Source of the DNA: Nannocystis sp.
GTDB lineage: Bacteria > Myxococcota_A > Polyangia > Nannocystales > Nannocystaceae
Length of the DNA stretch: 64,000 nucleotides
Assembly: GCF_016714285.1 (NCBI RefSeq)
Contig: NZ_JADJNN010000008.1
Coordinates: forward strand, 68,669-132,668
Direction: 5' to 3'
Shown here: positions 2,875 to 60,003 of the stretch, one piece after another
Position numbering within the stretch: the first letter of the stretch is position 1
How the letters are laid out: each line of letters opens with the position of its first letter
Translations under genes and position numbers: made by a program
Notes under the pieces: model-generated
Database searches by the model: none
Seen by the model: the letters and a program-made list of their open reading frames with translations, nothing else
What the model was told of the DNA's origin: nothing

Positions 2875-4071
2875 TCAGTCCGCGAGCTCGAGCAGCAGCT
2901 GACGGCAGCGGAGGCGGCGGAGCTCGTCGGCCTCGGGGCGCTCGACGTACGCCGTGAGCAGCGCGCGGGCCTCGGCGTGGCGGGCCTTGTCGCCGGGGCC
3001 GGCGAGGGCGCTGCCGAGGTTGAACTGCAGCTCGGGCGGGAGGCGCTCGGGCGGGTCGCCGCGGTGCCAGTCGCGGGCGGCGGCGGCGAGGCGGTAGGCC
3101 TGCTCGGCGCCGGCGGGGTCGTGCAGGCGGGTGCGGGCGACGCCGAGGCCGAGGCCGGCGAGGTAGCGGTCGACGGCGGCGGGGGCCTCGAGGGCGGGGG
3201 CGTAGAGCTCGGCGGCCTTGCGGTCGTTGCCGGCGGCCAGCTCGGCGGCGGCCCAGCTGAGGCGCGGGGCGGGCTCGTCGGGGTCGAGGGTGAGGGCGAG
3301 GGCGAAGCGGCGGCGGGCCTCGCCGGGCTCGTGGGCGGCGAGCGAGACGCGGGCGCAGCTGGCGACGAACAGGGCGGCGCCGCGGGGGTCGCCGCCGTCG
3401 GCCGCGGGGTTGTCGTCGACGATGCGTTCGCGGCAGATCTGGGCGGCGAGGGCGAGGCGTTCGGGCTCGCGGTCGGCGAGGGCGAGGTCGTGGCGCAGGG
3501 CGACGGCGAGGGCGTAGGGGTCGTCGGGGGCGAGGGCGAGGGCGGCCTGGAATTCGCTGCGCGCGGCGTCGCGGTCGGCGGGCTCGGCCCGGGCCTCGAA
3601 GGCGGCGACGTGGAGGAGGGCGAGGCCGACGCGGGCGCTCGGGCCCTGGAGGAGCTCGCGGGCCTCGGGGACCAGACCCTCGGCGAGGGCCAGGGCGGCG
3701 AGCTCGTGGGCCCAGCGCGGGCGCGGGTCGCGTTGCAGCAGCTCGGCGTAGATCGCCAGGACGGCCCGCGCGGCGCCGCAGCGGCGCAGGACGGCGGCGC
3801 GGGCGAGGGCCTCGTCGGTGGTGGGCGGGATCGAGGTGTCGGCGCAGGGGTCGGGGGCGGGCGCGGGGACGACGGTGTCGGGGTGCGCGGGGCGGACCGC
3901 GGCGCCGGGGGCCTCGCGCTTGCAGGCGAGCAGGAGGCAGAGCGCGACTGTCCCGAGGGACAGGTTGCGAGCGGCTGGCTGGGCTGTCCGGAGGGACATG
4001 GTGGAAGAGACAGCTGCGGCTGGCCGGAGGAACATGGCGGAAAGGGCAGCTTGGGCTGGCCGGAGGGACAT
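2875..4071 (-). CDS. TPR-like repeat lipoprotein
   Basis: The signal peptide plus lipobox is LGTVALCLLLAC, followed by a helical Ala/Leu/Arg-rich TPR-like body. Three in-frame ATGs (3999, 4035, 4071) lie in a 36-bp x3 tandem repeat. The long N-terminal ORF extension to 5106 is an artefact overlapping cobA. Confidence 0.6.
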   Translation of the reverse strand: MSLRPAQAALSAMFLRPAAAVSSTMSLRTAQPAARNLSLGTVALCLLLACKREAPGAAVRPAHPDTVVPAPAPDPCADTSIPPTTDEALARAAVLRRCGAARAVLAIYAELLQRDPRPRWAHELAALALAEGLVPEARELLQGPSARVGLALLHVAAFEARAEPADRDAARSEFQAALALAPDDPYALAVALRHDLALADREPERLALAAQICRERIVDDNPAADGGDPRGAALFVASCARVSLAAHEPGEARRRFALALTLDPDEPAPRLSWAAAELAAGNDRKAAELYAPALEAPAAVDRYLAGLGLGVARTRLHDPAGAEQAYRLAAAARDWHRGDPPERLPPELQFNLGSALAGPGDKARHAEARALLTAYVERPEADELRRLRCRQLLLELAD

Positions 4072-4090
4072 GGCGGGAGGGCCAGGTTGG
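3980..4090. repeat. 36-bp tandem repeat x3, each copy carrying an in-frame ATG (encodes MSLRPAQAALSA / MFLRPAAAVSST / MSLRTAQPAARN)
   Basis: Direct inspection shows ATG codons (cat on the plus strand) at 3997, 4033 and 4069, spaced 36 bp apart. Each unit contains GGAGGGACATGG. Confidence 0.8.
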
Positions 4091-4091
4091 T

Positions 4092-5660
4092 TCAGCGCTG
4101 GAGCGCGGCGAGCACGGTCGCGAGCATGGCGCGGTCGTCGGTGGACTCGGCGACGTGGTCGACGCGGACGCCGAGGGCGGTGATCGCCGCGGCGGTGACG
4201 GGGCCGAGGGCGAGGACCTGGGCCCTCGCCAGCAGCTCGCGCGCGGCGGCTTCGCCGTGGGCCTCGGCGACGGTGGCGAGGAAGTGGCGGGCGGTCTTGC
4301 CGCTGGCGAAGCAGATGGCGTCGCAGCCCTCGCCGCCGTGCTCGGGCGGGAGCAGCGAGCGGGTCAGCATGGCCGGGACGGGCGGGCGGACGACGCGGTA
4401 GCCGATGACGAGGTGGTAGCGGCCGCCGGCGGCGGTGATGGCCGCGGCGAGCAGGTCGCGGCCCTCGTCGGCGCGCACGTGCAGCCAGCGGCGGGCGAGC
4501 ATGTCGCGGGCGCGGAGCTCGTCGACCAGGCCCTCGGCGCGGGCCTGGTGGGGGACGATGTCGGGCTGGATGCCGCGCTCGATGCAGGCGGTGGCGGTGC
4601 CGGTGCCGATCGCGGCGACGCACTTGCCGTGGAGGATGCGGACGTCGACGCCGGTGCTGGCGAGGGCGTCGAACCAGGCGCGCACGCCGTTGGGGCTGGA
4701 GAGGATCACGCCGTCGACCTCGCCCAGGTCGCGGACGGCGCGGGTGAGGGCGTCGAGGTCGGCGGGCGGGGCGAGGTCGAGGCAGGGGAAGGCGACCGCG
4801 TCGGCGCCGTGGGCCGCGAGCATGTGCAGCAGCTCGCCGGCCTGCTGGGTGGCGCGGGTGACGACGACGCGGCGGCCGAACAGCGGGCGGCGCTCGAACC
4901 ACTCGATCTGGGCCCGGAGGTCGACGACGCTGCCGACGATCATCACGGCGGGCGGGCGGATGCCCTCGGCGTCGACGCGGTCGGCGAGCTGAGCGAGCGG
5001 GGCGACGACGGTGCGCTGGATCCCCCGCGTGCCCCAGCGGATCAGCGCGGCGGGGGTGGCGGGGTCGCGGCCGGCGGCGATCAGGCGCTCGGCGTTGTCG
5101 CGGCAATTCTTGACCGACATCATCAGCACGAGGGTGCCGGTGCCGCGGGCGAGGTGCTCCCAGTCGACGCCGCGGCCGCCCTTCTCGTAGGCCTCGTAGC
5201 CGGAGGCGATGGTGACGCTCGGGCTGTGGTCGCGGTGGGTGACCGGGATGCCTGCGGCCTCGGCGGCGGCGATCGAGGCGCTGACGCCGGGGACGAACTC
5301 GTAGTCGATGCCGGCGGCGCGCAGGACCTGGGCCTCCTCGGCGCCGCGGCCGAAGACCATGGGGTCGCCGCCCTTGAGGCGGACGACGTGGAGGCCGGCG
5401 CCGGCCTTGGCGAGCAGGAGGCGGTGGATCTCGTCCTGGTCGACGACGGGCTGGCCGTGGGCCTCGCTGGCGAAGGGGCCGTGCGGGCTCTGGGTGCGCT
5501 GGTAGAGCTGCACGTCGCGGCGGCAGTGCATGAAGAGCGCGGGGTTGACGAGGTAGTCGGCGACCACCACGTCGGCGCGGGCGAGGCGGTCGCGCCCGGC
5601 GAGGGTCAACAGCTCGGGGTCCCAGGGACCCGCTCCGACGATCGACACGAGGCCGGGCAC
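4092..5660 (-). CDS. cobA/hemD: uroporphyrinogen-III C-methyltransferase / uroporphyrinogen-III synthase fusion (CobA-HemD)
   Basis: The N-terminus MPGLVSIVGAGPWDPELLTLAGRDRLARADVVVADYLV is the SUMT signature. The C-terminal half shows the HemD fold (GVILSSPNGVRAW..., ...ICFASGKTARHF). Confidence 0.85.
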   Translation of the reverse strand: MPGLVSIVGAGPWDPELLTLAGRDRLARADVVVADYLVNPALFMHCRRDVQLYQRTQSPHGPFASEAHGQPVVDQDEIHRLLLAKAGAGLHVVRLKGGDPMVFGRGAEEAQVLRAAGIDYEFVPGVSASIAAAEAAGIPVTHRDHSPSVTIASGYEAYEKGGRGVDWEHLARGTGTLVLMMSVKNCRDNAERLIAAGRDPATPAALIRWGTRGIQRTVVAPLAQLADRVDAEGIRPPAVMIVGSVVDLRAQIEWFERRPLFGRRVVVTRATQQAGELLHMLAAHGADAVAFPCLDLAPPADLDALTRAVRDLGEVDGVILSSPNGVRAWFDALASTGVDVRILHGKCVAAIGTGTATACIERGIQPDIVPHQARAEGLVDELRARDMLARRWLHVRADEGRDLLAAAITAAGGRYHLVIGYRVVRPPVPAMLTRSLLPPEHGGEGCDAICFASGKTARHFLATVAEAHGEAAARELLARAQVLALGPVTAAAITALGVRVDHVAESTDDRAMLATVLAALQR

Positions 5661-10094: not shown

Positions 10095-10159
10095 TCGCGC
10101 GAGGGCCAAACGCGGGATGGCCAGCGCGAGGGCCAGACGCGGGATGGCCAGACGCGCGA

Positions 10160-15981: not shown

Positions 15982-17418
15982 ATGCGCAAGATCGTGATCG
16001 CGAATGTCGCCCTTTCTGTGGTCCTCGGTGGTGCGGTCGGCTGTTCGTCGGCGGACGTCGGCCTCACCGAGACCGTCACCATCACGGCCTCCGGGGACAC
16101 CGGCCAGCAGGGCACCACCAGCGGTGACCCGGGGACCGGCGCCGCGGCGACGACGGACGGCCCGACGACCGCGCCGCCGACCACGAGCGCGTCCGGGACC
16201 GGCGAGACCACAGACATCCTCACGGGGGGGATCAGCGCGACCGACAGCGCGACCGACACCGCGACCACGACCATGAATGACCCGAATCAGACGAGCACGG
16301 GCGGGGAGACCAGCGGCACCACGGGGGTGGAGGCCGCCGATGGCGACGGCGACAAGATCCCGGACGACCAGGACAACTGCGTCGAGGTCGCGAACGAGGA
16401 TCAGCTGGACACTGACGGCGACGGTGTCGGCGACGCCTGCGACGACGACGACGACGACGACACGATCCCCGACCCGGACGACAACTGCCCGCTGGTGCCG
16501 AACGACAAGCAAGAGGACCTCGACAAGGACAAAATCGGCGACTTCTGCGACGACGACAAGGACGGGGACGGGATCCTCAACGGCGTCGACAACTGCCCGA
16601 TCACCCCCAACGCCGACCAGAAGGACCTCGACAAGGATCTCATCGGCGATGTCTGCGACGACGACAAGGACGGCGACGCCATCCCCAACGACGCCGACGT
16701 GTTCCCCGACGACGGCGGTCAGCCTGGCATCGTCATCCCCAAGAAGATCTACGCCCACTCGTCGAGCGCGCTGTCGACGGTCGACGTGGTCGACTACAGC
16801 GTGGTCGCCATCGGGCCGTTCCAGTGGCCGCTCGGCAACGACTCGATGACCGACATCGCGATCGACCGCTACGGCGTGCTGTACGGGGTCAGCTTCGGCC
16901 GCGCGTACGTGTGCAACCCGACCACCGCCAAGTGCTTCGACCTCGGCACGCTCAACAACAGCTACAACGGCCTGACCTGGATCCCGGCGGGGATCATCGA
17001 TCCCGACAACGACTCGCTGATCGGCATCGGCAACGACGGCAGCTGGAACCACCTGACCTTCGTGAACAAGGTCGTGACGGCCAAGAAGCTCGGCAGCTAC
17101 GGGCCGGGCTACACCTCGGCGGGCGACGCCTTCTCGATCGAGAACGTCGGCACCTACGCGGCGGTCAACAAGAACGGCGCCGCGGGCACGGTGATCGTGA
17201 CGGTCGACGCGCTGACCGGGAAGGCGACGAACGAGCTGGCGGTCACCCAGGGCTTCTTCGGAATCTACGGGCTCGCCGGCTGGGAGGGGCTGATCCTCGC
17301 GTTCGACTCGTCGGGCACGGTGATCAAGATCGATCCGATGACGAAGGTGGTCACCAACCTCGGCAAGAAGGCCCAGAGCTGGTGGGGCGCCGGGGTCGGC
17401 ACGATCCTGCCGCAGTAA
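15982..17418 (+). CDS. lipoprotein with thrombospondin type-3 (Ca-binding) repeats
   Basis: The lipobox is GGAVGCSS. There are five or more DxDxDGxxDxxDNC TSP3 repeats ([26 protein letters not shown]...) and a C-terminal beta-rich domain. Confidence 0.65.
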
Positions 17419-17789: not shown

Positions 17790-18608
17790 CTAGCCGGCGG
17801 CGGTGGGCGGTGGTGCTGGTGGTTGGCCGGGGATCTTGCTCAGGCGCGGTGAGCCGGCGGGGATCTCGGGTGCGTCGACGAGGTGCTCGAGGATCTCGCG
17901 GATGCCCTCGTCGCTGCAGGCGCCGGTCTGCCAGGTGAACTGGCGAACCACCGACCAGCCGGGGAGGAAGGCCCAGTGGAGGTCGTCCTGCTCGCTCCAG
18001 TAGGCGCCGGCGAGGCCGGGGATCGGCACGGAGCGGAAGTTTGGGTCGCTGGCGAGCCGGCGGGTGAAGAGGTCGTGCGCCTCGGCGGCCTCACGCGCGT
18101 CGGCGCCGCGGACGAGCGAGAGGCGAAACCAGGTCGGGGGGGCGCCCGAGGCCTCGGCGTCGGGCAGGAAGTAGTAGCCGCAGGTCGCGTGGAACGACTC
18201 GCCGAGGTAGAGCTTGAGGCCGCAGGCCCGCTTCACGACCTCGACGTCGAGGCCGAGCTGGCGCGTGCAACACTCGGGCTCGGACAGCTCCGGCGCGAAC
18301 AGGCGACAGTTGCCGTTGCTCTCGTCGGGCCGACCGGTGTTGGGGGTCGGGGGTTCTTTGGGCGGGTTCGGCACGCCGTTCTCGGCGACGTAATAGTCAG
18401 CAGTGTCGGCGACGATGCGCTTGTCGTTGGGGTTCGGCGGGGCGTCGTCGCGACGTGACTCCGGGGCGGGCTCGCTGGCCTGCGGACAGGCGGCGAGGCC
18501 CCCCACAAGGCCAGCCAGGAGGCCAATTCGGAGGCTGTCTGGGAGGCCAATGCGGAGGCTGTCTGGGAGGCCAATTCGGAGGCCACGAGCGAGGGTCCGG
18601 CGAGGCAT
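17790..18608 (-). CDS. lipoprotein, unknown function, with an N-terminal 8-aa tandem repeat (GLPDSLRI)
   Basis: The lipobox is LVGGLAAC. The body has a CxxC/CC-containing region. A 24-bp tandem repeat lies in the signal-peptide region. It is the last gene of a minus-strand run (speE, paralog B, paralog A, lipoprotein). Confidence 0.5.
   Translation of the reverse strand: MPRRTLARGLRIGLPDSLRIGLPDSLRIGLLAGLVGGLAACPQASEPAPESRRDDAPPNPNDKRIVADTADYYVAENGVPNPPKEPPTPNTGRPDESNGNCRLFAPELSEPECCTRQLGLDVEVVKRACGLKLYLGESFHATCGYYFLPDAEASGAPPTWFRLSLVRGADAREAAEAHDLFTRRLASDPNFRSVPIPGLAGAYWSEQDDLHWAFLPGWSVVRQFTWQTGACSDEGIREILEHLVDAPEIPAGSPRLSKIPGQPPAPPPTAAG
18511..18590. repeat. 24-bp tandem repeat x2.7 (aggccaat[tg]cggaggctgtctggg)
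   Basis: Read directly from the sequence. It is in frame and encodes GLRIGLPDSLRIGLPDSLRIGL. Confidence 0.75.
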
Positions 18609-26651: not shown

Positions 26652-27962
26652 GTGAGGCGGTGGATCGCAGGGCTCTCGCTGGTGCTGGCGGCGCTGCTTC
26701 TGTGGTTGTGGTGGAGTGATGTGCCGGTGGGCAAGGCCGGTTCCGGCAAGCGCACCGGCCGGCGGTCGGCCGTGGCCGGCGGGTCGGCGAGCGGGTCGAT
26801 GGGGATCGGGAGCCGTGGTGAGGCGGATCGCAGCGGCGTTGGCCAGGTGCGGGGGCGGATCGTCGACAGCGACGGGATGCCGGTGACCGACGGGCGGGTG
26901 ATCCTTCATTGTCTGCCGAGGGGGGGGTCGCACAGCTTCCCGATCGACGCCGGGGTGGTCGAGGTCGGCGAGGAGGGGCAGTTCGTCGGGCCCGGTTGCC
27001 GGGGCCTGGTCTGCGCTGAATTCCGCCATACGCACCTGTTGCCGCGCGAGCCGTGGGTGTTCGAGCCGAATCAGAGCGAGCAGATGGTGACGGCGCGGCC
27101 GCTGGAGCGGATCGTCGGGACTGTGGTCGACGTGGAGGGACAGCCGGTGGCCGGGGCCCGCCTGATGGTCCGGCGCGGGAGCGACGACGACCCGACCGCG
27201 CTGCCGCCGTTTACGACCAGCACCACGACGAGCGACGCGGAGGGGGGCTTTGGCTTCGCCCGCGTCGAGCGGCCGCCCTGTGATCCCTGCGGGGAGGCCA
27301 GCGGGCGCTGTGAAGTCGGCGATGCGGCGGAGGTGCCGGCCTACAACGCGCTGGTGCTCGTGGCTCGCGCCCCCGGGTTTCGTAGCGTCGAGCGAGCCGT
27401 CGAGCTCGGGCAGGAGGACTGGCAGGTGACCCTGTTGCCGCCGTTGCCGGCGCTGCGGGGTACGGTACGGGATGCGGAGGGTCGGGCGTACCCGCGGGCG
27501 CGCGTGCTGGCGCGCTCGCATGTGCGCGGATACGAGGTGCACCAGGCGGTGGTGAAGGACGGGAGCTTCGCGCTGGCCGAGCTGGGGGAGGGGGGCTACG
27601 ACCTGCGGGTGCTCCAGGACGGGGTCACTCTGGCGACGGCGAACGAGGTGGACGCGGGGACCGAGGTGACGCTGGTCGGCGATCGTCCGGCAGAGGGACC
27701 GACCCTGGTAATTGAGGTTGTGCGGCGCGACGGCGGGGATGGGGTGGCCGGGGCGCTGGTCGATGGTGGGCCGTTTGCGGGCGCCCGCACGGACGCAGAC
27801 GGACGGGTGCAGGCGGAGGATGTGGCGCCGGGTCGCTATGCGCTGGTCATCCGGGCTCCTGGCTCGGGGACGCAGCGGCGCGAGATCGAGGTAGCGGCGG
27901 GAGCCGGCGAGGCGGGCGGAGCGATCGTCCACCGAGTCGACATCGTGTACGACGCGCCCTAG
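26652..27962 (+). CDS. membrane-anchored protein with carboxypeptidase-regulatory-like (CarbopepD_reg/Cna-B-like) beta-sandwich repeats
   Basis: A GTG start lies 14 nt after the phosphohexomutase stop. The protein has an N-terminal TM (IAGLSLVLAALLLWLWW) and repeats of the type GRIVDSDGMPVTDGRV, GTVVDVEGQPVAGARL, GTVRDAEGRAYPRARV and DADGRVQAEDVAPGRYALVI. Confidence 0.55.
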   Translation: MRRWIAGLSLVLAALLLWLWWSDVPVGKAGSGKRTGRRSAVAGGSASGSMGIGSRGEADRSGVGQVRGRIVDSDGMPVTDGRVILHCLPRGGSHSFPIDAGVVEVGEEGQFVGPGCRGLVCAEFRHTHLLPREPWVFEPNQSEQMVTARPLERIVGTVVDVEGQPVAGARLMVRRGSDDDPTALPPFTTSTTTSDAEGGFGFARVERPPCDPCGEASGRCEVGDAAEVPAYNALVLVARAPGFRSVERAVELGQEDWQVTLLPPLPALRGTVRDAEGRAYPRARVLARSHVRGYEVHQAVVKDGSFALAELGEGGYDLRVLQDGVTLATANEVDAGTEVTLVGDRPAEGPTLVIEVVRRDGGDGVAGALVDGGPFAGARTDADGRVQAEDVAPGRYALVIRAPGSGTQRREIEVAAGAGEAGGAIVHRVDIVYDAP

Positions 27963-28090
27963 GCGTGCGCGACGAGGACGATCGTCCGGGTCGACATCGT
28001 GTACGACGCGCCCTAGGCGTGCGCGACGAGGACGATCGTCCGGGTCGACATCGTGTACAACGCGCCCTAGGCGTGCGCGACGAGGCAGCG
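27936..28090. repeat. 54-bp tandem repeat x~2.8 spanning the stop of the CarbopepD-like gene and the start of the kinase gene; each copy contains ...GTGTACGACGCGCCCTAGGCGTGCGC (stop TAG, then 2 nt, then GTG)
   Basis: gtcgacatcgtgtac recurs with a 54-bp period (about 27936, 27990, 28044). The third copy diverges after cgacgagg. Confidence 0.8.
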
Positions 28091-31190: not shown

Positions 31191-31294
31191 CGGCGTGGCT
31201 GCGCCGGAGCGAGCTCGGGTTGAGCTGGCTGAGCTGCGCTGGCTCAGCGGGCTCTTGCTGGCTGAGCTGGCTCGGGCTGTCCCGAGGGACAGGT

Positions 31295-33542: not shown

Positions 33543-35126
33543 TCACGGCAGCAGGCCTTTCCGGAGCTGAGTGGCGAGGTCGATGGCGAGGTCGGAGTAG
33601 AAGAAGAAGGCGATGGTCGCGGCGGCGGTGCAGCACAGCGCGAGGACCATCGGCCAGGGCGCCTCGCCGTGCTCACCGTGGTGGCCGTGGGCGTGGCTGT
33701 GGTCGTCCTCGTCGCCGAACAGGCCGTCGGTCGAGCTGGCGTGGCGGCCCGGGTTGGCGGCGCGGGGCGAGGGGCGGAAGAAGGCGCGGTAGATGATCGG
33801 GAGGAAGTAGCCGGCGTTGAGCAGGGTGCTGAGGATGATGACGCCGACGACGAAGGCGTACTCGGTCTCCCAGGCGGCGGTCAGCAGGTACCACTTGCTG
33901 ATGAAGCCGGCGGTCGGCGGGAGGCCGATCATCGACAGGGCGCCGATCGTGAAGGCGCCCATGGTGAAGGGCATGCGCCGGCCGATGCCGTCGAGCTGGC
34001 TGACCTCGGTCTTGTGGGCGGCGGTGTAGATCGAGCCGGCGGCGAAGAACAGGGTGATCTTGCCGAAGGCGTGGGCGGCGATGTGGAGGGCGGCCGCCAT
34101 GATCGAGATCGGCGACAGCAGGGCCGCGGCGATGATGACGTAGGACAGCTGGCTGACCGTCGAGTAGGCGAGGCGGCGCTTGAGGTTGTCCTGGAACAGG
34201 GCGATGAAGGAGGCGATCAGGATGGTCGCGCCGGCGACGTAGATGAGCCAGCTGCCCTGGTGGTACTTGATGAGCGTGAGCGGGCCGAAGGTGTAGACGA
34301 TCACCTTGACGACGGTGAAGACGCCGGCCTTGACGACGGCGACCGCGTGGAGCAGGGCGCTGACCGGCGTCGGCGCGACCATGGCGGCGGGCAGCCAGCG
34401 GTGCATCGGCATCAGCGCGGCCTTGCCGATGCCGTACATGTAGAGGAGGAACAGGGTGCCGAGGACGGGCGCCGAGAGCTCGCCGGAGGCCAGGGCCTTG
34501 GTGAACACGCCGCCTGGCTTGAAGGACAGGTCGTGGGTGTAGGCGTAGGTGGCGATGATGCCGGCGAGGAGGAAGCAGACGGAGGTGACGACGAGGATGC
34601 CGAGGTAGGTCCGGGCCGAGCGCAGCGCCTCCGCGGTGCCCTTGTGGGCGACCAGCGGGTAGGTAGTGAGGGTCAGCATCTCGTAGAAGACGAACAGGGT
34701 GAACAGGTTGCCGGCGAAGGCGAGGCCCATCACGCTGCTGATGGCGAGGGCGAAGCAGACGTAGAAGCGGGTCTGGTGCCGCTCCTGGTTGCCGCGCATG
34801 TAGCCGATCGAGTAGAGCGAGTTGAGGATCCACAGGGCGCTGGCGATGAGCGCGAAGATCATGCCGAGGGGCTCGACCTTGAGCTCGAGGAAGACGTTGG
34901 GGACGACCTCGATGAGGCGCAGCGGCGGGGCCTTGGCGTAGCCGGCCCAGAAGTCGGGGGCGAGCACGCGGGGGACGATGCCGATGACCGTGTAGAACAG
35001 GGCCGCGGCGGTGCCGAGGGTGATGCCCTCGCGGAGGTTCGCCCAGCGGCCGGCGAGGGCGATGAGGAGGGCGCCGATCAGCGGGATGTAGATGGCCAGC
35101 AGCGGCGGGGAGAGGTCGAAGGTCAC
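33543..35126 (-). CDS. antiporter-like subunit (PF00361; NuoL/MrpA-like) with a His-rich C-terminal segment
   Basis: The GTG start overlaps the upstream stop (GTGA). Conserved regions include WLPAAMVAPTPVSALLHAVAVVKAG and AYSTVSQLSYV. The C-terminal part is ...DEDDHSHAHGHHGEHGE.... Confidence 0.75.
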   Translation of the reverse strand: MTFDLSPPLLAIYIPLIGALLIALAGRWANLREGITLGTAAALFYTVIGIVPRVLAPDFWAGYAKAPPLRLIEVVPNVFLELKVEPLGMIFALIASALWILNSLYSIGYMRGNQERHQTRFYVCFALAISSVMGLAFAGNLFTLFVFYEMLTLTTYPLVAHKGTAEALRSARTYLGILVVTSVCFLLAGIIATYAYTHDLSFKPGGVFTKALASGELSAPVLGTLFLLYMYGIGKAALMPMHRWLPAAMVAPTPVSALLHAVAVVKAGVFTVVKVIVYTFGPLTLIKYHQGSWLIYVAGATILIASFIALFQDNLKRRLAYSTVSQLSYVIIAAALLSPISIMAAALHIAAHAFGKITLFFAAGSIYTAAHKTEVSQLDGIGRRMPFTMGAFTIGALSMIGLPPTAGFISKWYLLTAAWETEYAFVVGVIILSTLLNAGYFLPIIYRAFFRPSPRAANPGRHASSTDGLFGDEDDHSHAHGHHGEHGEAPWPMVLALCCTAAATIAFFFYSDLAIDLATQLRKGLLP

Positions 35127-35245
35127 GGGGCACCTCCGAGCAGCGAGCGGGCGGCGGTCAGGGGGATGTAGATCGCCAGCAGCGGCGGGGAGAGGTCGAA
35201 GGTCACGGGGCACCTCCGAGCAGCGAGCGGGCGGCGGTCAGGGCG
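35081..35245. repeat. 80-bp tandem duplication x2 spanning the mrpD-like stop and the downstream GTG start (each copy encodes ...LTAARSLLGGAP* overlapping VTFDLSPPLLAIYI)
   Basis: Near-identical 80-bp units at 35081-35160 and 35161-35240, with 3-4 mismatches. Confidence 0.8.
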
Positions 35246-36714
35246 ATGTGGCCGGTGAAGGTGGCGTTGATGCCGAAGTAGATGCTGGCGCCGATCAGGG
35301 TCCACATCGGGATGAGCATCATCAGCGGGGCCTCCTCGACCGGCGGGGTGCCGGGGTCGGGCTCCTGGAAGTAGGCGGCCTCGACGACGCGCCAGGTGTA
35401 GACGACGGCGAGCAGCGAGCCGATGAGGACGACGGCGGCGAGCGGCCAGCCGCCGGGGCGCTCGAGGCAGCCCTGGACCAGGTACCACTTGCTGATGAAG
35501 CCGGCGGTGAGCGGGAAGCCGATCAGGCCGAGGCCGCCGACGGTGAAGGCGGCGAGGGTCAGCGGCATCTGTTTGCCGAGGCCGCGCACGCTGCGGATGT
35601 CGCAGCGGCCGGTGCGGTAGACGACGGCGCCGAGGGCCATAAACATGCCGCCCTTCATGACGGCGTGGTTGAAGATGTGGGCGACCGAGCCGGCGATGCC
35701 GTGGAGGTTGGCGAGGGCGAAGCCGAGGACGATGTAGCCGAGCTGGCCGACGCTCGAGTAGGCCAGCATGCGCTTGAGGTTGGTCTGGCGGATCGCGGTG
35801 ACGCCGGTGACGAGGATGCCGGCCGAGGCGCACAGCAGCAGGACCAGGCCGCTCGGCATCATGCCGAAGCTGAAGCCGACGCCGAAGATGGTGAAGAGGA
35901 AGCGGAAGGCCATGTACACGCCGACCTTGGTGGCGGTGGCGGCGAGCAGCGCGGACACGGCCGAGGGGGCGTAGGTGTAGGCCCGCGGCAGCCACATGTG
36001 CAGCGGGAACATGGCCATCTTCATGCCGAGGCCGGCGAGCAGGAAGGCGAAGGCGACCAGGACGGTGCGGCTCTCGAGGATGCCCGGCACGCTCATGAGG
36101 CGGTCGTGCATGTCCTGCATGTTGAGCGTGCCGGTGATCATCATCAGGTAGCCGATGCCCAGCAGGATGAAGCTGGCGCCGACGCTGCCGAGGATGAGGT
36201 ACCGGAGGCTGGCCGTGAGCGCGCCGCGGTGCATGTCCTTGCCCATGGCGATCAGGGCGTAGACGGTGAGCGACGAGATCTCGAGGAGGACGTAGACGTT
36301 GAAGGCGTCGCCGGTGACGGTGATGCCGAGCAGGCCGGTGATGGCGAGGACCCAGACGGCGTAGAAGAAGTTGACGCGGTCGGCCGGTATCTCCTTCTCC
36401 ACGCTGAGCTTGGCGTAGATGGTGGTGATGAAGCCGACGCCGCCGACGATGAGGAGGATGAAGGCGTTGAGGGCGTCGACGCGGTACTCGATGCCCCACT
36501 GGCGCGGCCAGTTGCCGAGCTCGTAGCTGACCATGCCGGTCTTGCTGGCGAGCACCTGCATCATCAGGCGGATGGTGAAGTAGAAGACGGTGCCGGTGAG
36601 GAAGGTGGCCCAGGCCCAGGGCTTCCAGCCGCGGCCGGTGGCGATCGTCAGGATGCCGCCGATGAGCGGGACGGTGACGATGAGGACGGGGAGGTGGGCT
36701 TGCACGTCAACCAT
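35203..36714 (-). CDS. mrpD: MrpD/NuoN-like antiporter subunit (PF00361), 503 aa
   Basis: Contains WLPRAYTYAPSAVSALLAATATKVGVY and AYSSVGQLGYIV. It overlaps mrpC by 8 nt. Confidence 0.8.
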   Translation of the reverse strand: MVDVQAHLPVLIVTVPLIGGILTIATGRGWKPWAWATFLTGTVFYFTIRLMMQVLASKTGMVSYELGNWPRQWGIEYRVDALNAFILLIVGGVGFITTIYAKLSVEKEIPADRVNFFYAVWVLAITGLLGITVTGDAFNVYVLLEISSLTVYALIAMGKDMHRGALTASLRYLILGSVGASFILLGIGYLMMITGTLNMQDMHDRLMSVPGILESRTVLVAFAFLLAGLGMKMAMFPLHMWLPRAYTYAPSAVSALLAATATKVGVYMAFRFLFTIFGVGFSFGMMPSGLVLLLCASAGILVTGVTAIRQTNLKRMLAYSSVGQLGYIVLGFALANLHGIAGSVAHIFNHAVMKGGMFMALGAVVYRTGRCDIRSVRGLGKQMPLTLAAFTVGGLGLIGFPLTAGFISKWYLVQGCLERPGGWPLAAVVLIGSLLAVVYTWRVVEAAYFQEPDPGTPPVEEAPLMMLIPMWTLIGASIYFGINATFTGHIALTAARSLLGGAP

Positions 36715-54891: not shown

Positions 54892-55053
54892 CGGCCGCGA
54901 CTGTACCGCAAGTCGGGCGATCCGCGGGGGCCGGTGCGGCGGCGCAGCAGGGCAAGTCGGGCGATCCGCGGAGGCCGACGCGGCGCAGCATGGCAAGTCG
55001 GGCGCTCTGCGGAGGCCGACGCGGCGCAGCAGGGCCTCGCGCAAGTCAGGCGA

Positions 55054-57462
55054 TCAGCGGAGGCCGGCGCGGCGGCGCAGCAGGGCCTCGCCGCCGAGGC
55101 CGATCAGCGCGAGCAGGAGGGCCCAGGGGCCGTCCCACAGCGGCACGCTGCGGCGGCTGTCGATGCGCAGGCCGGGGCCCTCGTCGCCGAGCTCGGCGAG
55201 CGGCAAGGAGCTCGGCAGGGCGTCGCCGTCGCGGGCGCGGAGGAAGCGGCCGCCGGTGGCCTCGGCGAGGGCCTGGAGGCGCTGTTCGCCGGGGTCGGCG
55301 TCGACGCGGGCGAGCTCGTGGCCGGGCTCGTCGACCAGGAAGACGCGGCGGGCGCGGGCCGGCGGCGGGCCGTCGACCTGTCCCGAAGGACCTGTCCTCC
55401 AGGCCATGGCCTCGTAGGCGCCGACGGGGAGGCGGCCGGGCAAGGTGTCGCTGGCGCGGCCGAGGGCGTCGGTGGTCCATGTCCCTTCGGACAGGAGGAA
55501 GGTGGGCGGGCCGGGGCTGTTGTTGTTCGCCGGTGCGGGTTCGACGGCGCCGAGCGGGCGGACCTCCCAGGCGAGCGGGACGGCGGGCTCGGGGGCGTAG
55601 CTGGGGGTGAGGGCGGTGGCTCGCAGGGTGACTGGTTGGCCGCGGAGGTAGCTCGGGCGGTCGGTCTCGAGGCTGAGGCGCTCGGCGGCCGCGTCGCGCA
55701 GCAGCCAGCGGACGGCGCCGAGCCACAGGAGGTCGTAGGGGCGGGCGCCGTCGACGAGCGGGAGGTCGGCGGCGAAGCCGAGGCGCCAGGTGGCGCCGGT
55801 GGCGAGGACGAGGCTGCGGCCCTTGCCGGGCTCGGCGATCGCGAGCAGGGGGGCGCCGCCCTGGGCGGTGAGCAGCACGGCGCTGGCGATGCTGGCGGCG
55901 TGGGGCGCGAGCTGGACGGGGTTGTAGCTGTCGAAGGCGGGGAGGGTCGACCAGTCGGGCGGGAGGGCGGCGAGCCAGGCGGTGATCGGGTGGCGTCGGC
56001 CGGCGTCGCTGAGGGCGGGGCGGTAGCTGTCGGTGAGGGTGCCGGTGGGGCGGCGGGTGTCGACGGGGAGGGTCGTGGCGAGCACGCCGGGGTAGTCGCC
56101 GGTGGCGAGGCCCATGTCGCCGCCGATGACGACGAGGGCGCCGCCCTCCTGCACGTAGCTGGCGATGTCGCCGAGGTAGACGCCGACCTGATGGTTGATC
56201 GCGTCGAAGTTGTGGAGGATGACGAGGTCGAAGGAGCCGAGCTGCTCCTTGAAGAGCTCGTCGGTGGGGAAGGCGATCAGGCTGAGCTCGGCGGAGGGGT
56301 CGTCGCGGTCGGCGTCCTCGACGCTGCGCAGGATGTAGTAGCTGAGCAGCTCGACGTTGGGGTCGCGGCCGAGCAGGGTCCGGAGCGCGCGCACGTCCCA
56401 GTCGGGGCGGCCGGCGACGTGGAGCACGCGGACCTTGTCGCGCAGGACCTTGACGACGAAGGCGCGGCGGTTGTTGGCGAGGGTGGCCTCGCCGGGGAGC
56501 GGGCGGACGGCGATCTCGTGGACGAACTGGCCGACGCGGTCGGGGGCGACCTCGAAGCGCACGGGGACCGGGACGCCGTCGGCGGCGAGGGTGACGCGGG
56601 TGCTCGCGACGAGGGCGCCGTCGCGGCGCAGGTCGACGTCGACGGGCGTGTCGGCGAGGCCGTGGGCGATCAGGTCGGCGCTGAACTCGGTGACGTTCTC
56701 GACGAAGGCGAACTCGCCGGCGTGGAGCTCGGCGACGGCGACGTCGCGGATCGCGGGGGCGCCGGCGCTGACGGTGGTGATCGGGACGCCGAGGGCGCGG
56801 GCGGCCAGGAGCAGCGGGTCCTGGGCGGGCTGGCCGTAGGTACCTGTCCCTTCGAACAGGCCGTCGGAGAGCACGAGGACGGCGGCGAGCGGGCGGGGGT
56901 CGTCGGTGGCGAGGCCGGGCTCGCCGGCGTCCGGGGCCTGGGCGAGCTCGGCGAGGGCGCGGGCGAGGTCGGAGGCGGGGCCGTCGACGGGGACCTTGAG
57001 CTCGTCGGCGTCGGTCTCGGCGATCGGGCGGCTGCGATCGGCGAAGCTGCGCAGGCCGGGGGACAGGCCCTGCTCGCGCCAGGCGGCGCGGGCCGGGGCG
57101 CCGGCGGACCAGAAGCTGCGCAGGCGATCGATGCGCGGGGTGGTCTTGGCGCCGGGGCGCTCGGCGTCGGCGAGGGCCATGCTGGCGCTGGCGTCGACGA
57201 GCACGGCGACGCGCGGACCGACCGGACGCACGGTCTCCCGGGCGAGGGTGAGCTCGAGGCCGACGGTGAGCAGGGCCAGCAGGCCGAGCATGCGCAGGGT
57301 GAACAGGCCGAGGCGGGTGCGGCGGGGCAGCGCGGGCCGGCCGGGGCCGGCGCCGCGGAGCGCGAGCGCGGCCTCGACGACGGCAATGGCGAGGCACACG
57401 ACCAGGAGGGTCAGGGCCAGCGGGTCCGGCACGTGGCCCGCGACGAGGCGCCAGCGCTCCAT
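55054..57462 (-). CDS. BatA-like membrane protein: N-terminal double-TM anchor, vWA-like domain (DxSxS) and a large C-terminal region
   Basis: The TM pair is LALTLLVVCLAIAVV... / ...LGLLALLTVGL. The MIDAS-like motif is VAVLVDASASM. Such proteins are typically encoded with DUF4159 and MoxR-type genes, and a DUF4159 gene is indeed upstream. Confidence 0.6.
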   Translation of the reverse strand: MERWRLVAGHVPDPLALTLLVVCLAIAVVEAALALRGAGPGRPALPRRTRLGLFTLRMLGLLALLTVGLELTLARETVRPVGPRVAVLVDASASMALADAERPGAKTTPRIDRLRSFWSAGAPARAAWREQGLSPGLRSFADRSRPIAETDADELKVPVDGPASDLARALAELAQAPDAGEPGLATDDPRPLAAVLVLSDGLFEGTGTYGQPAQDPLLLAARALGVPITTVSAGAPAIRDVAVAELHAGEFAFVENVTEFSADLIAHGLADTPVDVDLRRDGALVASTRVTLAADGVPVPVRFEVAPDRVGQFVHEIAVRPLPGEATLANNRRAFVVKVLRDKVRVLHVAGRPDWDVRALRTLLGRDPNVELLSYYILRSVEDADRDDPSAELSLIAFPTDELFKEQLGSFDLVILHNFDAINHQVGVYLGDIASYVQEGGALVVIGGDMGLATGDYPGVLATTLPVDTRRPTGTLTDSYRPALSDAGRRHPITAWLAALPPDWSTLPAFDSYNPVQLAPHAASIASAVLLTAQGGAPLLAIAEPGKGRSLVLATGATWRLGFAADLPLVDGARPYDLLWLGAVRWLLRDAAAERLSLETDRPSYLRGQPVTLRATALTPSYAPEPAVPLAWEVRPLGAVEPAPANNNSPGPPTFLLSEGTWTTDALGRASDTLPGRLPVGAYEAMAWRTGPSGQVDGPPPARARRVFLVDEPGHELARVDADPGEQRLQALAEATGGRFLRARDGDALPSSLPLAELGDEGPGLRIDSRRSVPLWDGPWALLLALIGLGGEALLRRRAGLR

Positions 57463-57482
57463 GCTAGCGGCGCAGCTCCGGG

Positions 57483-57640
57483 GTGGGGCGGGGCAGGACC
57501 TGGCTCTCGAGGCAGGTTCGGCTGGCCTCTGGGACAGGGCGCGTGGGACAGGTGGGGCGGGGCAGGACCTGGCTCTCGAGGCAGGTTCGGCTGGCCTCTG
57601 GGACAGGGCGTGTGGGACAGGTGGGGCGGGGCATGGTCAG
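57483..57640. repeat. 69-bp tandem repeat x2.1 in an intergenic region, rich in GGGACAGG motifs
   Basis: ggggcggggcaggacctggctctcgaggcaggttcggctggcctctgggacagggcg[ct]gtgggacaggt occurs twice, followed by a partial third copy. Confidence 0.8.
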
Positions 57641-58472
57641 CGCCAGCGGCGGGTGCGGAGGAGGGTCTCGACGTGGGCGCGGTCGGCCTTGTAGTCGGTG
57701 CAGGTGGCGTAGAGCAGGATGTTGACGGCGAAGCGGGTGGCCCACTCGCGCTGCTGCGGGCCGCCGGGGGTGCAGGGGAAGCTGTGGAGGCCGTCGGGGC
57801 CGCGGGCGAGGGCGCCGCCGAGGTCGTTGCGGACCAGCAGGACCTTGAGGCGGCCCTCCTCCTGGACGCCGAGGGCGTGGTTGAAGGCGCGGGTGCGGCC
57901 GACTGGTTCGTCGAGGACGTAGAAGGAGCGGTAGAGGACGTGGTCGCGGGCGACGGGGGTGAGGGGCGAGCCGGGGAGGATGCGGGCGAGCAGGGCCTGC
58001 ACGTCGCGCTCGAAGCCCGGGTCGGCGCCGCCGTCGGCGGCGTCGAAGACGATCATGCCGCCTTGGTCGATGAAGCGGCCGAGCTGGGCCTCGCCGGCGT
58101 CGCCCAGCGGGGGGAGCTGCTGCTCGCCGGCGACGTAGAGGAACGGGGTGGCGAACAGCGCGGGCGAGCCGGCGGCGACGGTGCTGGGCTCGCGCAGGGG
58201 CTCGAGGCGGGTGCGCAGGCGCAGCTCGCTGGCGAGCTCGCGCATGGCACCGGGGCGCGGGTTCCAGCGGCCGGGGTATTGCAGCTGCGGGAGGTCGACG
58301 TGGAGGAGGGTCTCGGGCTCGCGCCAGTCGCTGCCCTGGGTGAAGGCGGCGAAGGGGTCGTCGTCGTCGACTTGCGGAGGCGCGGCGGCGCGGGCCGTGG
58401 CGCCGCCGGGACCAGGACTGCGCCGCCGAGAGCCCCGAGTGCGCCGCCGAGCCAGTGCCTGCGGGTGAACAT
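57637..58472 (-). CDS. DUF4159-like secreted protein with a Tat-type signal peptide; apparent 1-bp frame disruption near 58385-58400
   Basis: The N-terminal frame reads MFTRRHWLGGALGALGGAVLVPAAPRPA (twin-Arg). The body frame reads ...QVDDDDPFAAFTQGSDWREPETLLHVDLP...PFLYVAGEQQLPPLGDAGEAQLGRFIDQGGMIVFDAADGG.... Confidence 0.45.
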
Positions 58473-58566: not shown

Positions 58567-59058
58567 GTGATCGGCGTGGTGGTGGGGTTGGGCAGGTGGC
58601 TCGTGGGGGCGGCGTGGGCTGTGGCGCTGGCGATCGGCGTGGTCGGGCCCTTGCTGGTGCGGGCGGCGTGGGAGGGCCGGGCCGAGCTGGTGGCGGCGGA
58701 CGAGGCGGCGGCGGCGGGGCGCGTCGACCTCGAGATCGTGCACCTCGGTCGGGCGGCGCGCTGGCGGGTGCCGATCGCGGGGCACGACGAGGCGGCGATC
58801 GCGAGGTTGCTGGCGATCGGGGCCGCGACGGAGGGCAGCGAGGCGGGCTCGCAGACGGCGCTGGCGGCCTACCGCGAGGCCCGGGCGGCGCTGCTGGTGA
58901 CGCGCGTGGGGGCGGTCGGCGACCGCGAGGCGCTCGGGCTGGCGAACCGGCGGATCGCGGCGTTGATGGCCGCGCAGGAGATGGCGTTCGGGACGGACCT
59001 GTCGGGGCGCGGGGCGGCGGAGGCGTATCACCTGGCGCTGCTCGAGCGGGCCGGGTGA
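58567..59058 (+). CDS. hypothetical membrane-anchored protein
   Basis: 163-aa ORF with an N-terminal TM and a helical Ala-rich body. No family was recognised. Confidence 0.35.
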   Translation: MIGVVVGLGRWLVGAAWAVALAIGVVGPLLVRAAWEGRAELVAADEAAAAGRVDLEIVHLGRAARWRVPIAGHDEAAIARLLAIGAATEGSEAGSQTALAAYREARAALLVTRVGAVGDREALGLANRRIAALMAAQEMAFGTDLSGRGAAEAYHLALLERAG

Positions 59059-59070
59059 TGCGGTACGGGC

Positions 59071-59187
59071 TTGAGGACAGGTGCTTCGGGACAGGTTACG
59101 GGGCTGTCCTGGAGGACAGGTGCTTCGGGACAGATTGCGAGGCTGGCCTGGAGGACAGGTGCTTCGGGACAGAGGCCCGCGCCCTCG
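59071..59187. repeat. 39-bp tandem repeat x3 (ctggaggacaggtgcttcgggacag...) in a convergent intergenic region
   Basis: gaggacaggtgcttcgggacag occurs at about 59073, 59112 and 59151. Confidence 0.8.
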
Positions 59188-59379: not shown

Positions 59380-60003
59380 TCACGGCGCGGTGAAGATCGC
59401 GGCCCAGTAGTAGCCGTGGACCGGCGCGAGCGCGTCCTTCGCGGTGAAGTCGCCGGCGAAGGCGCCGATGCCGATCTCCTCGAGCTCGCGGGCGCGGAGC
59501 TTCCAGCAGCTGCCGGGGTTGTCGGCCCAGCTCGCGGCGATGTCGGCGGCGGCGGCCAGGTCGCTGCGCTCGGGCTCGCCGTCGTCGAGGACGGTAAAGC
59601 CGTCGTTCTCGCCGTAGGTGCTGGCGGGGTGCTCGACGGCGTCGAGGCGGGTGCCGGTGCTGACGCCGTCGGGGTCGACCTGGCCGACGAACTGGCGGGT
59701 CTGCATGTCCTGGCTGTGGAGGCGGGCGGCGCAGCGCAGGGCCGGGGCGAAGCGGAGCGGCGCGGCGGGCAGGTAGGCCAGGTCGCCGCAGCGGCCGCCC
59801 TGGGCGCGCAGGGCGTTGATCTCGGCGAGGAGGGCGAGCTCGGCGGGGGCGGCCTCCCAGGTCGCCACGGGATCGCAGCGCTCGCTGCTGGGGACCGCGG
59901 GCGGCTCGTCGGCGGGCATGTCCGTCGGCGGGTCGCAGGCCGGGAGCAGCAGGAGGAGCGCGAGGCAGGGGCGCAGCACCGGGTGAGGGTACCAGGACCC
60001 CAC
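59380..60003 (-). CDS. CAP/SCP/PR-1-like domain lipoprotein
   Basis: The lipobox is LLLLPAC. The protein matches CAP-domain motifs (...NALRAQGG...HSQDM..., ...HGYYWAAIFT). Confidence 0.65.
   Translation of the reverse strand: MGSWYPHPVLRPCLALLLLLPACDPPTDMPADEPPAVPSSERCDPVATWEAAPAELALLAEINALRAQGGRCGDLAYLPAAPLRFAPALRCAARLHSQDMQTRQFVGQVDPDGVSTGTRLDAVEHPASTYGENDGFTVLDDGEPERSDLAAAADIAASWADNPGSCWKLRARELEEIGIGAFAGDFTAKDALAPVHGYYWAAIFTAP

Follow-up and report, generated by a model that had tools for sequence, protein, structure and literature searches.

At the 5′ end of a TPR-like lipoprotein gene of Nannocystis sp., we found a 36-bp tandem repeat that is real and reproducible in two assemblies and that, judging by its orthologs, behaves as a variable-number tandem repeat (VNTR) whose copy number varies between closely related strains. 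The gene lies on the minus strand of a 64,000-nt stretch (contig NZ_JADJNN010000008.1, positions 68,669 to 132,668; about 72% GC), hereafter called the window, to which all coordinates refer. The array is probably a minisatellite in the translated 5′ end of the gene, built on a palindrome dispersed throughout the genus, and is most likely near-neutral rather than a switch.

The 36-bp array at the lipoprotein 5′ end

Arrays were detected with Tandem Repeats Finder (TRF), and 30 second-order Markov shuffles of the window provided the null. In the window, the program reported an array at 3978-4076 with a period of 36, 2.8 copies, 84% matches, and a score of 138. For arrays with a period of at least 24, the top score in the shuffles was 79, which places the head-to-tail units beyond chance. 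A separate repeat search stretched the register to 3944-4085, and the full array spans approximately 3940-4091 on the minus strand, from the upstream stop codon to the h-region of the signal peptide. The initial annotation had described three 12-codon units with in-frame ATGs at this position, a description that the TRF score, the minus-strand sequence, and its translation bear out. These units occupy 4071-4036 (ATGTCCCTCCGGCCAGCCCAAGCTGCCCTTTCCGCC), 4035-4000, and 3999-3964, with an in-frame ATG at the head of each, and translate to MSLRPAQAALSA, MFLRPAAAVSST, and MSLRTAQPAARN, respectively. Two components had been missed, i.e., a fourth unit that starts at 3963 with a CTG head (CTGTCCCTCGGGACAG, encoding LSLGT) and runs into the h-region, and a partial unit (4091-4072) that occupies the entire 20-nt spacer behind the upstream TGA. 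The core (A/C)TGTCC-N4-GG(A/C)CAGCC is present in every unit. The components of the locus, all on the minus strand, are as follows.

4092-5660, minus strand: upstream cistron, a cobA/hemD fusion (uroporphyrin-III C-methyltransferase/uroporphyrinogen-III synthase; Pfam TP_methylase, E 1.3e-44, and HEM4, E 2.3e-46), with its TGA stop codon at 4094-4092
4072-4091, minus strand: intercistronic spacer formed by the partial unit (tail CCTGGCCCTCCCGCC; unit alignment and sequence), without a Shine-Dalgarno-like sequence
4036-4071, minus strand: unit 1, with ATG1 at 4071-4069 as the probable true start (ATG position kept in all orthologs); its core ATGTCCCTCCGGCCAGCC is a GGCCAG variant without a stable hairpin
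4000-4035, minus strand: unit 2, with ATG2 at 4035-4033 and a degenerate core, ATGTTCCTCCGGCCAGCC (sequence and fold)
3964-3999, minus strand: unit 3, with ATG3 at 3999-3997, the start annotated by NCBI, and the perfect palindrome TGTCC-CTCC-GGACA at 3998-3985 (fold, -5.8 kcal/mol)
3940-3963, minus strand: head of unit 4, with CTG for ATG and the palindrome CTGTCCCTCGGGACAG at 3963-3948, read as LSLGT (fold, -13.2 kcal/mol; z -3.05)
3922-3939, minus strand: end of the h-region and lipobox L-L-A-C, with the Cys codon at 3924-3922 (translation)
2875-3921, minus strand: mature TPR-like lipoprotein, 348 amino acids plus the stop codon (34 homologs; GC at third codon positions [GC3], 0.98)

The gene had been named a TPR lipoprotein, and the lipoprotein half of this name held. 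An Arg is found in each unit, followed by the h-region LSLGTVALCLLL and a lipobox LLAC (LLLAC) that fits the consensus [LVI][ASTVI][GAS]C, as is usual for lipoprotein signal peptides; across 24 aligned homologs, Ala25 and Cys26 never vary, and the Leu ahead of them hardly does. The TPR half fared less well, with Pfam TPR families matching at E values of 0.1-0.3, below their curated cut-offs. A profile of the 24-sequence family searched against the PDB nonetheless matched consensus TPR proteins at E values of 1.5e-4 to 3e-4 over approximately 80 residues, and “TPR-like lipoprotein” thus seems a reasonable description. Every one of the 34 homologs is Nannocystis-like.

Assemblies of metagenome-assembled genomes (MAGs) can collapse or expand repeats, and the initial annotation had raised the possibility that the array is an assembly artefact. 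However, the sister MAG GCA_016717175.1 (99.0% nucleotide identity over 7 kb) has three units that are identical but for a single substitution in unit 2, in which TCC replaces the TTC of the window. The equal copy number in two independently assembled MAGs, together with copies too diverged to come from read mis-assembly, led us to reject this explanation. A phase-variation (contingency) locus was also considered on the basis of position. The lic1 gene of Haemophilus influenzae, likewise related to the envelope, also has repeats at its very 5′ end along with several in-frame ATGs, but these repeats consist of near-identical 4-bp CAAT units whose slippage changes the frame and switches expression. 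The Nannocystis units are instead 36 bp long and diverged, with pairwise identities of 24-29 of 36 rather than the near-identity of units in contingency loci. As 36 bp is a multiple of three, the frame never shifts, and copies that are only 84% alike would not be hypermutable. Phase variation is therefore contradicted by the present data on both unit length and unit identity, and neither it nor the artefact retains more than a vanishing probability.

Copy number and start codon among related lineages

In a scan of genome contigs, the sole relative returned (L001) was a sequence that ends before the lipoprotein N-terminus. Orthologs in other Nannocystis lineages, most of them also located behind cobA/hemD, have arrays in this place too, but of a different makeup and with unit lengths between 24 and 75 bp.

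L003: seven units; three (36 bp) have an ATG head and four (36 or 27 bp) a CTG head
L004, a close relative of L003: five units (36/27 bp)
L134, whose mature protein is 93% identical to that of the window: one ATG unit and two CTG units (36/27 bp)
L009: the minimal state, one ATG unit and one CTG unit
L010: 24-bp units
L012: 27-bp units, 4-5 repeats
L011: 69-bp units
L013: 75-bp units

The comparison of copy number among strains, which the initial annotation had recommended, revealed differences of whole units among orthologs and near-identical strains. The predicted proteins P0002 and P0004 are approximately 96% identical outside the array, yet their lengths differ by exactly 24 amino acids, i.e., two 12-residue units. 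One cluster at 90% identity contains proteins of 433, 410, and 387 amino acids, corresponding to three, two, and one 23-residue units; further 90%-identity clusters contain proteins of 409 versus 427 and 418 versus 459 amino acids, and a pair from near-identical strains measures 408 and 388. The proposal that a change in copy number would alter the length of the n-region is thus well supported. Units are also more alike within a genome (33/36 and 29/36) than between genomes (25-27/36), pointing to turnover or concerted evolution.

The accompanying idea that such changes would move the start codon was not borne out. In all nine orthologous loci, the position of the first ATG ranges from 4 nt ahead of the upstream stop (in an ATGA overlap) to 23 nt behind it, and no stop codon interrupts the frame between this ATG and the lipobox. 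It is the sole ATG ahead of the h-region in L009, L010, L012, L013, and L134, and is preceded by GGAG in L010, L012, and L013. At the position equivalent to ATG3, L134 has a CTG. The unit lengths encountered (24, 27, 36, 69, and 75 bp) are all multiples of three. L011 reads the motif in a different frame (TCPSGQ), yet there too an ORF is maintained, beginning at an ATG that overlaps the stop of the upstream gene (ATGA). ATG2 and ATG3 of the window are lineage-specific internal copies. Given the single-ATG orthologs and the conservation of the first ATG, translation probably starts at ATG1 (4071) rather than at the annotated ATG3, with the array read as the n-region. The third ATG is the start in the public records MBK7826573.1 and MBK9754196.1 (NCBI) and P0002 (JGI), as well as in P0001 and P0091; the protein encoded from ATG3 is identical to MBK7826573.1 (P0091). 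Starting at ATG1 would add 24 residues to the annotated protein, and the start codon of this lipoprotein family has probably been mis-called in public annotation.

The explanation that we favor for the array can be laid out as a series of steps. The motif from which the units are built, aCCTGTCC-CNNN-GG(A/C)CAGCC, is found in marked excess across Nannocystis genomes. The ancestral gene would have carried two neighboring copies, both of which appear ancestral, one ATG-headed at the start codon and one CTG-headed immediately ahead of the hydrophobic core. Through slipped-strand mispairing or unequal recombination, these direct copies may then lead to duplication or deletion of the intervening 24-75 bp, which would give rise to the lineage-specific unit types and to the whole-unit copy differences seen in close strains. 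In the lineage of the window, the duplicated segment would have included the start codon, hence the three in-frame ATGs. Judging from conservation, translation would begin at ATG1, right behind the cobA/hemD stop, and proceed through the array to yield a 50-residue lipoprotein signal peptide with one extra Arg per unit and four Arg in the n-region. Signal peptidase II is predicted to remove the whole extended peptide, so that the mature protein would remain unchanged and a change in copy number would be nearly neutral. Because the units are multiples of three, a change in copy number cannot turn the gene on or off, and the array presumably persists because its variation is tolerated and not because it has a switching function.

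Several observations weigh against this explanation. The GC contents by codon position in units 1-3 (0.67/0.67/0.69) resemble those of untranslated DNA, compared to 0.88/0.57/0.98 in the gene body. Inspection of the sequence found no Shine-Dalgarno sequence in any unit of the window, the gene calls of NCBI (PGAP) and JGI both begin at the third ATG, and an n-region of 36 residues is unusually long. That the array is always in frame is also a biased observation, since gene callers pick the longest ORF, and some homologs with truncated N-termini (P0010 and P0021) fell outside the DNA-level comparison. Copy number is equal in the window and its 99%-identical sister MAG, and slippage is read from the pattern of units rather than observed. 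Finally, the hairpin is limited to units 3 and 4, which makes a weak case for a role of the hairpin in slippage or function at units 1 and 2.

The flat codon-position GC and the two concordant gene calls would also be expected of an untranslated intercistronic leader. In that case, translation would start at ATG3 (3999) with a canonical 26-residue signal peptide, units 0-2 would be non-coding, and their ATGs would be incidental. Arrays with the same core do occupy clearly non-coding spacers elsewhere in the window (57482-57633 and 59073-59173), and, by an estimate from base composition, 37 stop-free codons would arise by chance about half the time at 72% GC. However, a leader is difficult to reconcile with L134, a 93%-identical ortholog in which the equivalent of ATG1 is the only ATG, with the four further orthologs whose single ATG lies upstream of the entire array, and with unit lengths that are in every case divisible by three. 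In the fold prediction, the UG of AUG3 sits in a 5-bp stem formed by the palindrome of unit 3, which leaves this codon partly buried, whereas AUG1 and AUG2 are free. We consider a leader unlikely, and a translated array remains the reading that we prefer.

A palindromic core dispersed across Nannocystis

Above all, the initial annotation overlooked that a palindromic motif, scattered over the genus, underlies the units; two further arrays, at 57482-57633 and 59073-59173, are formed from it as well. In its perfect form, TGTCC-N4-GGACA, the palindrome was counted eight times in the window, where 0.04-0.06 occurrences are expected (0.04 from dinucleotide shuffles). The related loci, 49 kb in total, hold 17 copies compared to an expected 0.02. 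It is the sole palindrome of the 5-N4-5 type with a more than 100-fold excess. Four of the eight perfect copies in the window lie within confident coding sequences, where codon-order shuffles predict 0.02. The strict copies in the window all have one orientation and are direct repeats, unlike the inverted doublets of REPINs. In the convergent 3′ spacer of orthologous lipoprotein genes, zero, one, or two copies of the motif are found depending on the species. A single perfect copy was also found in the window, as follows.

31277-31292, minus strand: single perfect palindrome CTGTCCCTCGGGACAG, 2 nt past the stop codon of an MbtH-like gene (motif scan and fold)

The palindrome was also seen approximately 90 codons into orthologous lipoprotein genes (L010 at 2764, L013 at 2806, and L136 at 10123), where it is read as PVP(E/G)DS within a conserved DPCADAPVPEDS and uses the rare Pro codon CCT.

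A motif scan of metagenomes returned at least 120 loci, and base bias was derived from 81 instances at loci with a GC content of at least 0.68, among the matches listed. In these instances, the base before the motif is an A in 68%, and the ambiguous position is also an A in 68%, completing the palindrome; the GGCCAG variant makes up 32%. Low-GC matches, which are taken as chance matches, had neither positional bias. In the arrays, the codon at the motif position is always ACA (19 cases) or CCA (36 cases), although these codons account for just 3.5% of Thr and 5.1% of Pro codons, respectively, and the GC3 of the genome is 93-98%. The GC3 of N-terminal regions is 0.70-0.83, compared to 0.93-1.00 in gene bodies. 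The motif translates to LSx(R/G)(T/P)A within n-regions and to PVPx(D/A)S within Pro-rich linkers behind signal peptides (L086 and L053); overall, it occurs in three readings and in non-coding spacers, where it is untranslated. The retention of rare codons, the several readings, and the untranslated copies together indicate that the nucleotide sequence, and not the peptide, is conserved. The conserved entity is a palindromic repeat, apparently undescribed, that is over-represented across the genus. Fold prediction gave hairpins of -5.8 to -13.2 kcal/mol for units 3 and 4 as well as for the copies located at 31277 and 59105, whereas units 1 and 2 and the GGCCAG variants remain unfolded.

Several candidate functions were rejected. 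An Rfam search returned nothing at E ≤ 1, and the fold of the whole array was no better than that of shuffles (z -1.15), which speaks against a structured RNA. A promoter or terminator inside the array was looked for and none was found. The idea that the motif marks the 5′ ends of genes for secreted proteins was unsupported, with 6 of 70 high-GC metagenome loci listed (9%) compared to 5.7% of controls. CTGT-N8-ACAG matches the spacing of an Escherichia coli-type LexA box, a match treated as coincidence given the tandem arrays and a density of approximately one site per 8 kb. On the plus strand, an ORF at 3818-4183 and GGAGGnACATG motifs were set aside, as the ORF lacks coding periodicity (GC, 0.70/0.80/0.75) and the ATG lies just 2 nt past GGAGG.

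An enrichment of more than 100-fold that is specific to one motif, along with the maintenance of rare codons, could also mean that the palindrome is a functional cis element, i.e., an mRNA hairpin or a site bound by an abundant dimeric protein with affinity for DNA or RNA. The array would then work as a dosage device by which the transcription of the lipoprotein gene, its mRNA stability, or its translational coupling to cobA/hemD is tuned. Conserved flanks that are asymmetric (A at -1 and CC on the 3′ side) fit this proposal, as do the copies directly behind stop codons and at cistron junctions. Among the metagenome matches listed, approximately 51 are in sense and 21 in antisense orientation; this bias was not used to argue for a function at the RNA level because the C-rich flanks of the motif would favor the C-rich coding strand anyway. 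However, units 1 and 2 and many other array units carry the stem-breaking GGCCAG, the spacing of units varies from 21 to 75 bp, and the site density is far above that of a normal regulon. The blank Rfam, promoter, and terminator searches, the unremarkable whole-array fold, and the lack of association with signal-peptide genes in the metagenome sample also count against a cis element, which we regard as decidedly improbable.

As a short palindrome dispersed in spacers and in frame within genes, the motif could alternatively be a miniature mobile element of the REP/REPIN or Rickettsia palindromic element (RPE) type, mobilized by a transposase, with the array arising from repeated insertion and not from local slippage. 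The zero to two copies in the orthologous 3′ spacer are compatible with such mobility, for which REPs and RPEs provide precedents (PMC3337134; PMC1458961). Yet in the array the whole unit, spacer sequence included, is repeated in register, which points to tandem duplication instead of independent insertions. Moreover, the copies are direct, without the inverted doublets that define REPINs, the core measures just 16-20 nt, and no target-site duplications or transposase were identified, although no search for RAYT was made. We find this origin very hard to credit.

On a broader and speculative reading, to which we give little credence, the palindrome aCCTGTCC-CNNN-GGACAGCC would be an undescribed functional or self-propagating “nano-element” across Nannocystis. 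It could be the target of an abundant nucleic-acid-binding protein or a REP/RPE-like selfish sequence, short enough to settle in permissive coding sequences in two frames (LSxRTA in signal-peptide n-regions and PVPxDS in Pro-rich linkers). In both cases, it would seed VNTRs wherever two copies are near each other. The ATG unit might then act as a modular re-initiation cassette at cistron junctions, which would keep a start codon beside the upstream stop at any copy number.

Other arrays in the window and comparison with known systems

Ten loci in the window (eleven TRF rows) have a period of at least 24 and a score of at least 100, compared to none in the shuffles, and most lie at gene boundaries. 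Three of the arrays share the core (3940-4091, 57482-57633, and 59073-59173), the rest of the unit being locus-specific, and four other arrays lack it. The arrays and duplications beyond the lipoprotein locus include the following.

About 57464-57639 (also 57482-57633), minus strand: second array built on the core, 69 bp x 2.2, 98% identical copies (CCTGTCCCAGAGGCCAGCC), filling the spacer between a DUF4159 gene and a gene for an 802-amino-acid membrane protein
59073-59173, minus strand: third array with the same core (CTGTCC...GGACAGCC), 39 bp x 2.6, 93% (CTGTCCTCCAGGACAGCC), in the 3′ spacer where a plus-strand ORF (end at 59058) converges with the gene of a CAP-domain lipoprotein (end at 59380)
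18518-18583, minus strand: 24-bp x 2.8 array in the signal peptide of a second lipoprotein (MPRRTLARGLRIGLPDSLRIGLPDSLRIGLLAGLVGGLAAC), without a start codon; absent from a 95%-identical homolog (256 versus 272 amino acids) and from all 56 homologs
27932-28085, plus strand: 54-bp x 2.9 array (98%) that duplicates the stop/start junction “...VDIVYDAP-stop, TAG GC GTG” between a CarboxypepD_reg protein and a 1063-amino-acid Ser/Thr kinase
35069-35249, minus strand: 80-bp x 2.3 array (95%) in which the GTGA overlap of stop and start codons from two Proton_antipo_M (Mrp/Nuo-like) genes is duplicated
54908-55091, minus strand: four copies of 41-48 bp in which the 3′ end of the 802-amino-acid gene (...ALLRRRAGLR-stop) is duplicated into the spacer ahead of the following gene (repeat search)

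The initial annotation had suggested that the theme of the 36-bp array recurs at loci with 24-, 54-, and 80-bp repeats. This holds only loosely. The 24-bp array has no start codon, and its absence from the 95%-identical homolog and from all 56 homologs marks it as recent and lineage-specific. The 54-bp array is a copy of a stop/start junction on the plus strand and gives the Ser/Thr kinase three in-frame GTG starts. The 80-bp period is not a multiple of three, and a 27-codon ORF is left between the two genes; the ends of this duplication have microhomology (CTGACCGCCGCC versus CTGATCGGCGCC). Most simply, the common denominator is survivorship, with tandem duplications apparently being frequent in this genome and persisting only where they are harmless, i.e., in spacers, at junctions where both genes are left intact, and in signal peptides that are cleaved off.

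Further features were noted along the window. A 27-bp x 2.2 array (93%) at 10097-10156 is located in a convergent spacer, where it directly follows the stop of a plus-strand gene, and its unit (TTGGCCCTCGCGC...) resembles the tail of the 36-bp units. At 16427-16698 on the plus strand, 108-bp x 2.5 repeats encode an Asp-rich DxDxDG...NCP that by eye resembles thrombospondin type-3 calcium-binding repeats. A 56-codon ORF exactly spans the 57464-57639 array, bracketed by TGAccATG and TAGcATG, and the motif is read there as RPVPEAS. In the adjacent gene (57640-58472, minus strand), a Tat-like N-terminus, MFTRRHWLGG... (ATG at 58472), is out of frame with the DUF4159 domain, reflecting a frameshift or a MAG assembly error. 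In the sister MAG (L002, 5840-5911), a run of approximately 60 C replaces the short unique sequence found at about 1173-1176 of the window, probably an assembly artefact there.

Literature searches on tandem repeats in Nannocystis and on REP elements in myxobacteria turned up nothing of relevance. As analogues, MIRU-type VNTRs and palindromic repeats of the REP and RPE type come closest. MIRU-type VNTRs are tandem repeats of 46-101 bp present at 41 loci in Mycobacterium tuberculosis (PMC3914561). The Nannocystis arrays resemble them in having units that measure tens of bases and stand head to tail in a genome rich in GC, several dispersed loci whose units are related through the core, positions at co-directional junctions, and copy differences between close strains. 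MIRUs reportedly keep reading-frame continuity with flanking start and stop codons, a likeness seen here at 4071-4094 and 57464-57639. However, only a palindromic core of 16-20 nt is common to the Nannocystis loci, and unit length (24-75 bp) and spacer vary by locus and lineage. The array described here also lies inside a coding region, in the n-region, and has no sequence relationship to MIRUs.

REP/REPIN elements, which are associated with RAYT transposases (PMC3337134; PMC3116915), are likewise short, over-represented, dispersed palindromes, often located behind stop codons or between convergent genes; their stem-loop potential is shared by some of the Nannocystis copies. REPINs, however, are inverted doublets, whereas the Nannocystis motif occurs as single copies or direct arrays with a stem of just 5-7 bp, and half of its perfect copies in the window are inside genes. 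RPEs, with 526 copies of which 53 are within protein-coding genes (PMC1458961), share the tolerance of palindromic repeats both in frame at permissive coding positions and in non-coding DNA. The Nannocystis motif differs in being approximately 20 nt long and tandemly arrayed, and in having at least two reading frames (LSxRTA and PVPxDS). RPEs are approximately 100-150 bp long and are not known to be arrayed in tandem.

The evidence gives no indication of a novel mechanism of regulation, and the array is most likely an evolutionary curiosity rather than a genetic switch. It nevertheless has consequences for annotation, since the start codon is probably mis-called throughout the lipoprotein family, and genes beside similar arrays may share this error. 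Protein lengths in Nannocystis MAGs also differ by whole repeat units for trivial reasons. Ten minisatellite loci per 64 kb and one palindrome in more than 100-fold excess suggest a high rate of tandem duplication and an uncharacterized family of dispersed repeats in Nannocystis. Such arrays could serve as VNTR typing markers for these large-genome, natural-product-rich myxobacteria, and they offer a natural experiment on n-region length in a lipoprotein signal peptide, which ranges from 12 to about 70 residues.

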